Positions 31,101-34,100 of a stretch of DNA of 64,000 nt are shown here, piece by piece. Source of the DNA: Escherichia coli O157:H7 (GTDB lineage Bacteria; Pseudomonadota; Gammaproteobacteria; Enterobacterales; Enterobacteriaceae); NCBI RefSeq assembly GCF_013167455.1, contig NZ_CP038328.1; one strand, written 5' to 3'. The position numbers were made by a program. Numbering within the stretch: the first letter of the stretch is position 1; every line of letters starts with the position of its first letter.

Positions 31101-34100
31101 CGATTTAGTACTAAGACAGACTTTACCACAAATGAAAATAATGAAGTTATTGTGAGTAGATCCTTTAATCTCTACACGGGGGCTACTTCGAATGATAACG
31201 AAAAAAAACAGGTTTCTTCAGAGAGATTAACGCTTGATAATTATCTCGATGATTTACATTTTGATAATTCTCCCTTGGTGAGATTAACGTTTGATAATTA
31301 TTCTGTAAAACTTGCGACGCTGATTAAAAATAAAATTCCTATTATTAATACAACAATCAATTTATCATCGTTGTCTAAGGATGTTTTAAATTCATTAAAA
31401 TATTGTAGTTTTAAGAATGTAATTTTTTCAGGAGTGATAAACAGCCCTAACCTTGAAGGTCCGGTTTTTGAAAATTGCTATTTCGATGATTGTAAATTCA
31501 ACAACATACAGCTTTATGAGACTAATGATGATACTGTGGAATCAGGAAATAAAAAACCAATAAAAGGTATGTTTAAAGGTTGTTTTATTTCTAAATGCAA
31601 AATTGAAAATTATAGATGTGAGACGTCTAAAATCTACACCGTTACACAACCTGATAGTATTCAAGAAAAATTAGGTTCTTATCTCTTTATGCAGTCTTTC
31701 GTTCAGGATTGTATAATCCAGGGAGGATGTTGTCCTGGCTCGAGTATACTTCTGAGTCATTTTTATAACTGTAATATAATAGGGCTTGATGCTCATGGAA
31801 TGGATTTTTTGGCAAATTCGTTCAACAAGTCTAATTATGATGAAATCAGGGGTCCGGATACGGGGACTGTGTTTTATAATTGTAATTTGAAGCATATTAA
31901 AATAAACGATGGTCTTCGTGAAGATGGTTCAGATAGAACTATGTTTAACCCCAAAGAGTATTTTTCTGATTACATTGAAAGAAGATCGAGAAATCTTAAG
32001 TTAGATGATAATTTTTCGAAATGCGTAGAGAGTATAAAGAAAGGGACCGATTCTTCATTTAGCAAGAAAAATACAGAGAACAATAATGTCTTCTTTAAAA
32101 ATAGTAATTTGATTGGGGCAAATTTAGGCTATTATTACAGTGGAGATAGGTGCAAAGACTGTGCTATTGATCCAAATACAAATTATTCAAAAGATGGTCT
32201 TACAGCGCAAAAATACATGTATATGGATCTGGACGGAGCTATAAGTAAAGAACAAATACCTGATTTCTTAAAAAAGGTAAGTGCTATCAATATCGATGTA
32301 ATAAATTTTTATAATTCCGAGTCAAAGACTAAGGAAAAATATAAAAACGCATTTTTAGAGTTAGAGTCGTTTTTATCAACACTTTATGTTGAAAATAAAT
32401 CGTACGAGGAAAAATATCATTTTGATAATAGTAGGGTTGAGTTTTTTATTTTTAAAGATATGCAGGAAAATGCACAAAATATCATTAACAATATGATAGA
32501 AAGTGACCGGATTAAGTTTGTTGAATCTATAATAAATAAAATGATTCCGCCGCCAGATGGAACAATACTTACTGAAAATCCAAAAGAATATGTCCAAAAG
32601 CAAATAAAGGAGTCTCATAAAGAATCTGCTACAAATGTAACATTTGATTATAAGGAACTTGCACCCATTTTTGAAGGTGTTGAAGAAAAACAAATTAAAG
32701 CACTATCAAACCAACTGGAACATATAAAATCGTTTAAGACAGATTACGACTCAAGGCTCAATAAGTATGCTCGCGATTTTTACTATTTTTCCAGTGCATT
32801 TGCAATTAACTGGGAGGATTTACTAAAAAACTATCAGGAAATAAGAGCTTCCATTAAAGATTACGATGACTTATTGCGAGAAATTAAAGAGTTAATCATA
32901 AGTCGTAATAAATCATTAGAGGATAAAAGGACTTTATTTGATAACAAAAGGGACAATTGGAATAGTATAGAAGTGCAGGATGAAGTAAATGCATTGAATG
33001 CGAAAATTGTCGATTGTGATGATAAAATACGTTCTAAGCTTACTATTGTTCGAAATAATAGACTTGAGAATCAATATAAAGACGATAAAAACATCAGTGA
33101 CGCGATGCGTAATATTCTGGATTGGTTCGAACGGTATCCCGATATTGTACAAAATATAACCCAGGCTTAACCATACAGAGGGTGGATGACAGGACGAATA
33201 ACGACATAAATTATTCATAGGGAATAGACGCTTACTCATCAGACACCTGGTGTTCTGTATCTCAAACCAGCGTGACTGATGTGTAAGTGTTGAAGTAAGG
33301 AGGCGATTATCGCGTTATATTCCAGCCGCGTGCCTTCCAGAGCGCAGGCAGCTGCGACAGCTCGGTAAAGGTGGTGACTTTCGGGTGAACGATCGGCTTA
33401 TTGTGCGGGTCAGCGCAGAAGTAAAACACTTCCATTCCGGCATCTATCCCTGATTGAGCGCCAGCGCTGGAGTCATCGACCAGAATGCAGTTTTCAACGT
33501 TCACATTCATCGCTTTTGCCGCATGGAACATTAATGCCGGATCGGGCTTCCAACGCTGAATGTCATATCCGCTGAACAGTTTTTCCGGGAAGTAGTGCAG
33601 CATGTTGAGCTTACCAAGCGAATGCTGCATTTTGCTGACCGGACCGTTAGAGACGACGCACATCGGCACGTTAATGCTCGCCAGCAATTCGTTCGCTCCT
33701 GCGATGTCCTCAAGTTCGGTATCAAACAGACGTGCTACTTCTGCGCGGTAAACGTGCTCGGCATCGGCCTGGACCATCGTCACGCCCTGTTCTTTACTGA
33801 TGATATCGATGATTTCGTAGAGTTTTACGCCTTTAAAACGGGTAAAAATCTCTTTCAGGTCAACGTGAATGCCAAATTCCCTGAACATCGTGACATAGGC
33901 GCGAGAGCAAATGACCTCGCTATCGACCAGCGTACCGTCGCAGTCGAAAAATACCGCTTCTATCTGGGACATGTCTTTCCTTTATCGTTAGTTTAACGTT
34001 TTCGTCATGCCAATTCGCATGACGCAATCGTTGCCGTATAAGCAAATACAATGAAAAAAGTTATCTTCAGCCGTCCATATTGTCTCATTTTGGTATACGA

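Follow-up and report, generated by a model that had tools for sequence, protein, structure and literature searches.

The window analysed here, a stretch of 64,000 nt from Escherichia coli O157:H7, includes the known AT-rich Z5211–Z5214 island, which extends from phoU to yieH and has a G+C content of 26–34% compared with ~50% in the flanks. From left to right, the genes are phoU, paralog 1, a split gene on the minus strand, paralog 2, the convergent yieH and adeP. The 10 kb surrounding the hairpin considered below are 100% identical to E. coli O157 chromosomes. In the searched passages of the published island description (Sankar et al. 2009, PMC2646131), the Z5211–Z5214 island is an AT-rich alternative that takes the place of the bgl–yieJI island in ~19% of strains, the mutual homology of Z5211 and Z5214 is already noted and H-NS is reported to repress the locus; the same passages make no mention of the hairpin, of the yieH relic or of the divergent single-gene (L094-type) allele. 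Sulfamethoxazole–trimethoprim is a condition reported to induce expression of the island (PMC5931665, PMC4048457). The genes that frame the hairpin are:

26421–28805, plus strand: paralog 1 (Z5211/ECs4653), a 794-aa open reading frame, N-terminally frameshifted in O157 and 32% identical in amino acid sequence to paralog 2
30762–33170, plus strand: paralog 2 (Z5214/ECs4657), an 802-aa pentapeptide-repeat effector-like gene (open reading frame and RefSeq annotation)
33307–33972, minus strand: yieH, the core gene for 6-phosphogluconate phosphatase, which converges on the effector gene (open reading frame and RefSeq annotation)

The stop codons of paralog 2 and yieH are 136 nt apart, the complement of the latter occupying positions 33307–33309, and the hairpin lies inside this gap. 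In the literature, ECs4653 is named EspY4, ECs4654/4655 EspX3′ and ECs4657/Z5214 EspY5′. The PGAP annotation conflicts with this usage, calling the homologue of Z5214 (EspY5′ in the literature) EspY4 and Z5211 hypothetical, and no NCBIfam family was found for either paralog. The EspY-like family is tiny, with 40 representatives among 1.84 billion in a 50%-representative protein search; the best 120 matches listed in a 90%-clustered search added nothing, every one being a near-identical E. coli protein.

Two of the island genes are interrupted in O157. The 5′ frameshift of paralog 1 (window positions 26300–26460), which is shared with several other strains, leaves a small upstream CDS and a TTG-start open reading frame; the gene is intact, as a single 832-aa gene, in strains DG342-2 and WP2-W18-ESBL-10 (L005 1615–4113). 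The pentapeptide-repeat gene in the middle of the island (29274–30461, minus strand), which the literature names EspX3′, is split into open reading frames of 156 and 223 aa in O157 and is intact at 395 aa in several other E. coli lineages (L005 4583–5770). A block upstream of both paralogs (26148–26213 and 30593–30658) is 73% identical between them, and its core, AATGAGCGnTTTTTTACAG, recurs inverted at 30521–30541, upstream of the middle minus-strand gene, with 90% complementarity. From its sequence, this block looks like a promoter or regulator site (TTTACA ... TAATAT) shared by all three effector-like genes.

Downstream of each paralog is a nested hairpin, and the features needed to describe its two copies are:

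28863–28926, plus strand: hairpin copy 1 (repeat and fold; covariance model score 97.8 bits)
28942–29045, minus strand: foreign yieH 3′ relic, directly after copy 1, with an internal deletion between its two parts
33171–33226, plus strand: variable spacer from the effector stop codon to the hairpin, in which 11/52 sites vary among 9 E. coli genomes
33227–33291, plus strand: hairpin copy 2, 65 bases with 23 pairs (fold, pair table and covariance model, 98 bits)
33288, plus strand: O157-lineage C-to-T SNP (alignments), changing G-C to G·U on the plus strand and giving an A/C mismatch on the minus strand
33292–33306, no strand: 15-nt tail from the hairpin to the yieH stop codon, with no significant homology to the K-12-type yieH–cbrB spacer (~10% of shuffles score equally)

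Copy 2 consists of an outer stem of 9 + 6 pairs interrupted by a T/T mismatch, a middle helix of 3 pairs, an inner stem and a 14-nt loop (33252–33265). The outer arms read ACGCTTAC-T-CATCAG and CTGATG-T-GTAAG(C/T)GT, and the inner stem pairs CTGGT (33247–33251) with ACCAG (33266–33270). As plus-strand RNA, copy 2 folds at −31.1 kcal/mol (z −4.61, with 0/200 shuffles as good) and copy 1 at −27.9 kcal/mol (z −5.05, again with no shuffle as good), so that the existence and stability of the hairpin are well established. The minus strand also folds, at −26.2 kcal/mol for copy 2 and −24.5 kcal/mol for copy 1.

The preliminary description recognized a second copy of a nested hairpin after paralog 2, in which the inner CTGGT/ACCAG stem is kept and the loop has diverged, and both points are borne out. 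A repeat search pairs 28858–28895 with 33222–33259 (84% identity) and 28899–28954 with 33264–33319 (79%), and comparison of the copies shows an unchanged inner stem and a loop that differs in sequence and by a 1-nt indel. In a 60-nt sliding comparison of the paralogous segments, coding sequence is mostly 45–65% identical, and the element, at 72–78%, is the maximum of the segment. The spacer flanking the hairpin is ~45% identical between copies and is A-rich beside the hairpin, which corresponds to a U-rich run when read on the yieH strand. A small open reading frame through the element was considered and rejected; there are stops in every frame in addition to the indel between copies. An AAGGAGG motif in the tail of copy 2 is not conserved in copy 1 or in the divergent L092 allele. 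No known Rfam family accounts for the element: a scan of 28700–33500 at E values up to 10 returned only chance matches, the sole one on the element being mir-590 at 23.6 bits (threshold 65, E 0.34).

Sequence comparisons at three levels bear on whether the stems are constrained. (i) Between the two copies, with position 33288 in its non-O157 state, 43/46 paired positions are identical compared with 12/19 unpaired positions (Fisher p 0.0047), with no difference at any of the 40 bases that make up the outer and inner stems. The paralogous proteins are just 32% identical, yet the stems are 93–100% identical and the loop and bulges ~63%. (ii) Among 9 E. coli genomes, 1/46 stem sites varies, as against 11/52 sites of the spacer just upstream (p 0.0046). 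(iii) The deeply divergent L092 allele differs at 3/63 positions of the hairpin core, versus 14/56 in the immediate flanks on both sides (p 0.003). These three independent contrasts indicate that the stems are under purifying selection. No compensatory double substitutions are present on the plus strand (0/23 pairs), and the argument for structure is therefore drawn from the pattern of conservation and not from covariation. Four of the 23 pairs vary on one side, all retaining G·U on the plus strand. Such strict conservation of sequence could equally reflect sequence-specific recognition.

Selection on structure was originally proposed from a C-to-T change between the copies that converts a G-C pair to G-U. 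The change in pairing on the plus strand is real, with T33288 partnered to G33230 as G·U, but it is not a difference between the copies, as all other lineages have C in both. Copy 2 has C at this position in 8/8 other E. coli genomes fetched and in the divergent alleles L091–L098, and among metagenome contigs C is present in all except one O157-like contig. The substitution is thus a single recent transition in the O157 lineage and by itself says little about selection; the proposal stands on the conservation of paired relative to unpaired positions instead.

To describe the distribution of the element, we combined similarity searches with a covariance model of the hairpin built from 12 variants. 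Of 5,426 complete E. coli genomes, 1,108 contain the element, at a median of 2 and a maximum of 3 places each, and this locus accounts for every one of them; no similarity was found elsewhere in these genomes. In the 64-kb window, the covariance model finds nothing beyond the two copies, and nothing of the kind accompanies the island's third effector-like gene. It was not found in the phages searched or on any true plasmid, the sole match among the plasmids searched being a 4.9-Mb record that is evidently a chromosome. A metagenome scan with both arms as a pattern returned 46 stretches, every one of them in a copy-1 or copy-2 context.

The preliminary description had associated the element with the island, and this association survived the check set for it in advance, an examination of yieH flanks. 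In the island-free strain MSHS 133, where cbrB directly follows yieH, there is no similarity until the last yieH codons. In addition, yieH with 4-kb flanks was recovered as 80 loci, of which a single E. coli-like contig (L011) carries the element; both BLAST and the covariance model find it absent from the other 79, which derive from many species of Enterobacteriaceae and include E. albertii, E. whittamii, Citrobacter, Salmonella, Enterobacter and Klebsiella. The element is therefore island-associated, and its interpretation as yieH-linked backbone sequence of the Enterobacteriaceae is rejected on the same evidence. The hairpin is restricted to the Z5211–Z5214 island. Contig L011 (JAIJJM010000384.1) is a 3.1-kb member of a Collinsella sp. 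metagenome-assembled genome that holds an E. coli yieH (99%) with hairpin copy 2, and is almost certainly a binning contaminant.

The two copies differ in what lies beyond them. Copy 2 is followed by yieH itself, and copy 1 by the minus-strand relic of a foreign yieH 3′ end. Relic positions 28988–29045 match yieH 33594–33651 at 46/58 positions (79%, E 1e-10), and the remaining part, 28942–28987, weakly resembles the yieH 3′ end. Third codon positions account for 10 of the 12 differences in the stronger match (p 0.0005), and 17/19 amino acids are identical; this segment therefore diverged as part of a working gene in another lineage. The relic is about as distant from E. coli yieH as is the yieH of other genera, with its best match, at 84%, in E. 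albertii. Its presence after copy 1 defines the repeated unit as effector gene–hairpin–yieH end, and there are two hairpin copies because this whole unit is present twice. On sequence grounds, the relic implies a donor of module 1 in which the effector gene probably already adjoined yieH, and its divergence mainly at synonymous sites means that this arrangement persisted while a functional yieH ortholog diverged.

The relic also changes how the right-hand end of the element is read. A conserved tail had been described as running into the yieH 3′ end. The tail does abut yieH, but its conservation comes by way of the relic, and what was called the tail consists of the yieH-proximal spacer and the last yieH codons. 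The right-hand junction of island and backbone had likewise been placed beside yieH, which is correct, but within a span that ran 15 nt into the gene. The last two yieH codons (33307–33315 compared with L002 3995–4003) give an island-type ..ITR* ending and a K-12-type ..ITA* ending. The former, ending ...ACGCGATAA, is common among the enterobacterial endings inspected, and ..ITR* is found in several other Enterobacteriaceae. The K-12-type ending is thus the derived one, and the junction lies at the yieH stop codon (33306/33307).

Further evidence on the composition of the unit comes from divergent alleles. All divergent EspY-like fragments that could be placed adjoin yieH, 6/7 of them with a 136-nt gap. 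The most informative is L094, in which one 775-aa gene, with 74–77% DNA identity to paralog 1 and no close relative in the 5,426 E. coli genomes, lies between yieK and yieH. The spacer 3′ of this gene is paralog-1-like, and the hairpin and all that follows it are 96–98% identical to copy 2 and yieH, which places the allele switch at the base of the hairpin, within the invariant 18-nt 5′ arm. Hairpin type therefore follows yieH and not the effector gene, and the linkage of the hairpin to yieH is firmly documented. Genomes with an L092-type paralog 2, an allele found in ~19 complete genomes, retain paralog 1 as a 764-nt fragment (L145 4179–5081, strain 2013C-4282); hairpin copy 1 and the yieH relic have been deleted along with most of the decayed gene, and copy 1 is therefore dispensable. 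The description of the hairpin as a 3′ element of the paralogs is accordingly right in that a copy follows each of them, but it omits that the unit includes the yieH end and that hairpin type tracks yieH. Because the unit that was duplicated or re-acquired is effector–hairpin–yieH, the hairpin cannot be credited simply to the 3′ UTR of the paralogs.

How the hairpin might act depends on the strand on which it is read. On the minus strand it starts 16 nt past the yieH stop codon and is followed by CUUUUCGUAU in copy 1, CUUUUUCGU in L094 and CUAUUCCCUAU in copy 2. In the 15 of the 79 other enterobacterial yieH loci that were inspected, a hairpin occurs a few to ~20 nt after the stop codon, and several of these are classic terminators. 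By the criteria for intrinsic terminators, the plus strand has no U tract (GAAGUAAGG) and the minus strand has 3–5 U after an interrupted stem of 23 pairs; by those for bidirectional terminators, the element has an A-rich 5′ flank and lacks a 3′ U tract. A terminator consensus scan found none that uses the full hairpin, on the plus or the minus strand; its sole match here is a small alternative plus-strand stem within the element (33237–33252). No published transcript 3′-end or sRNA data were found for the locus.

We tentatively favor, at slightly under an even chance, a model in which the hairpin is a gene-end RNA structure shared by the convergent pair: yieH would be served by a terminator-like structure, and the effector mRNA by a 3′ stem-loop or roadblock. 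It would act in cis as an insulator at the 3′ ends of both transcripts, one from an effector-like gene that is AT-rich and poorly expressed, the other from the core gene yieH. On the minus strand, the terminator-like hairpin with its following pyrimidine/U-rich run would terminate yieH transcripts or at least form their ends. On the plus strand, where there is no U tract, a stable 3′ stem-loop could block 3′ exonucleases or read-through into yieH. A need for the fold on both strands would also account for the lack of change in the stems, since any G·U intermediate on one strand leaves an A/C mismatch in its complement. Action as RNA, with termination or stabilization as the activity, is in this model deduced from sequence features. 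The model has against it the lack of compensatory changes, the non-canonical terminator features on both strands, the variants that destabilize the minus-strand stem and the dispensability of copy 1.

It is possible, though unlikely, that the hairpin serves only the effector mRNAs, as a stabilizing 3′ UTR stem-loop or a protein-binding hairpin on the plus strand, and that its adjacency to yieH is incidental. Each paralog has a copy downstream, the plus-strand fold is the more stable one and L145 lost copy 1 along with its gene. Across genomes and metagenomes, 6/7 stem transitions are C-to-T changes that are wobble-compatible on the plus strand only, giving G·U there and A/C on the minus strand, and 97.5% of cells in the pair alignment are paired on the plus strand compared with 90.9% on the minus strand. 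However, the bias in transitions is only at p 0.06 (binomial), the plus strand has no U tract and the third effector-like gene has no such element. The arrangement of the alleles also argues against incidental adjacency, as the paralog-1-type gene and spacer of L094 carry a copy-2-type hairpin that tracks yieH, and copy 1 is accompanied by a yieH relic of similar divergence.

The converse reading, that the hairpin is a yieH terminator active on the minus strand only and carried along with yieH from the source lineage of the island, is distinctly doubtful. It is consistent with the position of the hairpin 16 nt after the yieH stop codon and ahead of a U-rich run, with the hairpins, several of them classic terminators, at the same place in the other species inspected, with the tracking of yieH by hairpin type and with the yieH relic adjoining copy 1. 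However, this hairpin follows yieH in none of the other 79 loci recovered, it is atypically long for a terminator and the U tract of copy 2 is poor. Four independent polymorphisms weaken the minus-strand stem by creating A/C mismatches; one of them is the O157 SNP, fixed in that lineage and located near the base of the stem.

Two further readings concern the sequence of the arms as such. We regard as improbable that the hairpin is a sequence-specific cis element, recognized by a protein or a partner RNA or used as a crossover point, which provides a fixed yieH-side boundary for swaps of effector alleles; this would explain both the invariance of the arms across effector alleles that are 32–34% identical in protein sequence and the switch within the arm. 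Very improbable is a role at the DNA level, in which the palindrome would be bound by a protein or used in recombination and would mark where an effector cassette open to exchange ends on the yieH side. The strict conservation of arm sequence without covariation, the L094 allele switch inside the 18-nt invariant 5′ arm and the insertion of an IS in the same arm in strain ABW_A19 are compatible with such a site. There is, however, no recombinase or integrase in the island, each genome has two copies only and none elsewhere, the R″ and R′ boxes of attC sites are absent and a bias of stem transitions toward one strand would not be expected of a site in duplex DNA. The remaining possibility, that the element is a functionless leftover of duplication kept by gene conversion or by hitch-hiking with the conserved yieH, finds some encouragement in its position beside a core gene, in the evident recombination at the element (L094) and in the loss of copy 1, but it is highly improbable because a conversion tract would homogenize the loop as well as the stems and because the L092 hairpin is better conserved than both of its flanks, the yieH-facing side included.

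Like terminators between convergent genes, the element is a single hairpin in a short gap between converging stop codons with an A-rich 5′ flank, and it sits where the other enterobacteria inspected have a post-yieH hairpin, several being classic terminators. Unlike intrinsic or bidirectional terminators, it has a long interrupted stem of 23 pairs, a 14-nt loop, no U tract on the plus strand and a weak one on the minus strand. It thus behaves like a terminator or 3′ stabilizer yet fails the strict definition of an intrinsic terminator. With REP/BIME sequences it shares the form of an imperfect extragenic palindrome at a gene end and, probably, protection of the upstream mRNA from 3′ exonucleases, but REPs are ~35 nt long with hundreds of dispersed copies per genome, and this element has two, both in one island. 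Assignment to REP/BIME or ERIC dispersed repeats was accordingly rejected on copy number (median 2, maximum 3, one locus).

The resemblance to integron attC sites is also one of form: an imperfect palindrome of similar size at a gene 3′ end, with unpaired bases and a variable loop, and with one allele exchange at the edge of the hairpin. The element differs in that the RYYYAAC and GTTRRRY consensus sequences are absent; it has GTTGAAG and GTTGACG, to which its 5′ end is not complementary. Nor is there an integrase or an array of cassettes, and the genes carry promoters of their own. An integron attC site was rejected on the absence of the R″ and R′ boxes and because the annotation of 10 genomes shows no integrase within 8 kb.

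The hairpin is thus a real, conserved and lineage-restricted gene-end hairpin of a familiar kind, and it opens no new class of mechanism. Its interest lies in giving the poorly studied Z5211–Z5214 island a defined non-coding element that is, by the comparisons above, selectively maintained. For the history of the island, the presence of two effector–hairpin–yieH units, one with a foreign relic, points to an enterobacterial donor in which an effector gene lay beside yieH. If the hairpin does insulate a core metabolic gene from a convergent, xenogeneic gene silenced by H-NS, it would be a small example of how acquired genes are fitted into a chromosome without disturbing their neighbors.

Two strain-level observations may be added. 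In ABW_A19 (L006 7684–9011), the 5′ arm of copy 2 is interrupted by an IS3-family element whose ends, TAGACTGG...GGCAAATCCA, we take to be IS2-like. The insertion duplicated 5 bp of its target (CGCTT) and restored the hairpin on the side of yieH, at a distance of 1.3 kb from the effector gene. In other genomes, bgl–yieL–yieK and the effector island occur together and only cbrBC is replaced (L010, strain 19KM1776, 1–9268; L094 1–9135). The bgl and Z5211–Z5214 islands are therefore not strictly alternative.
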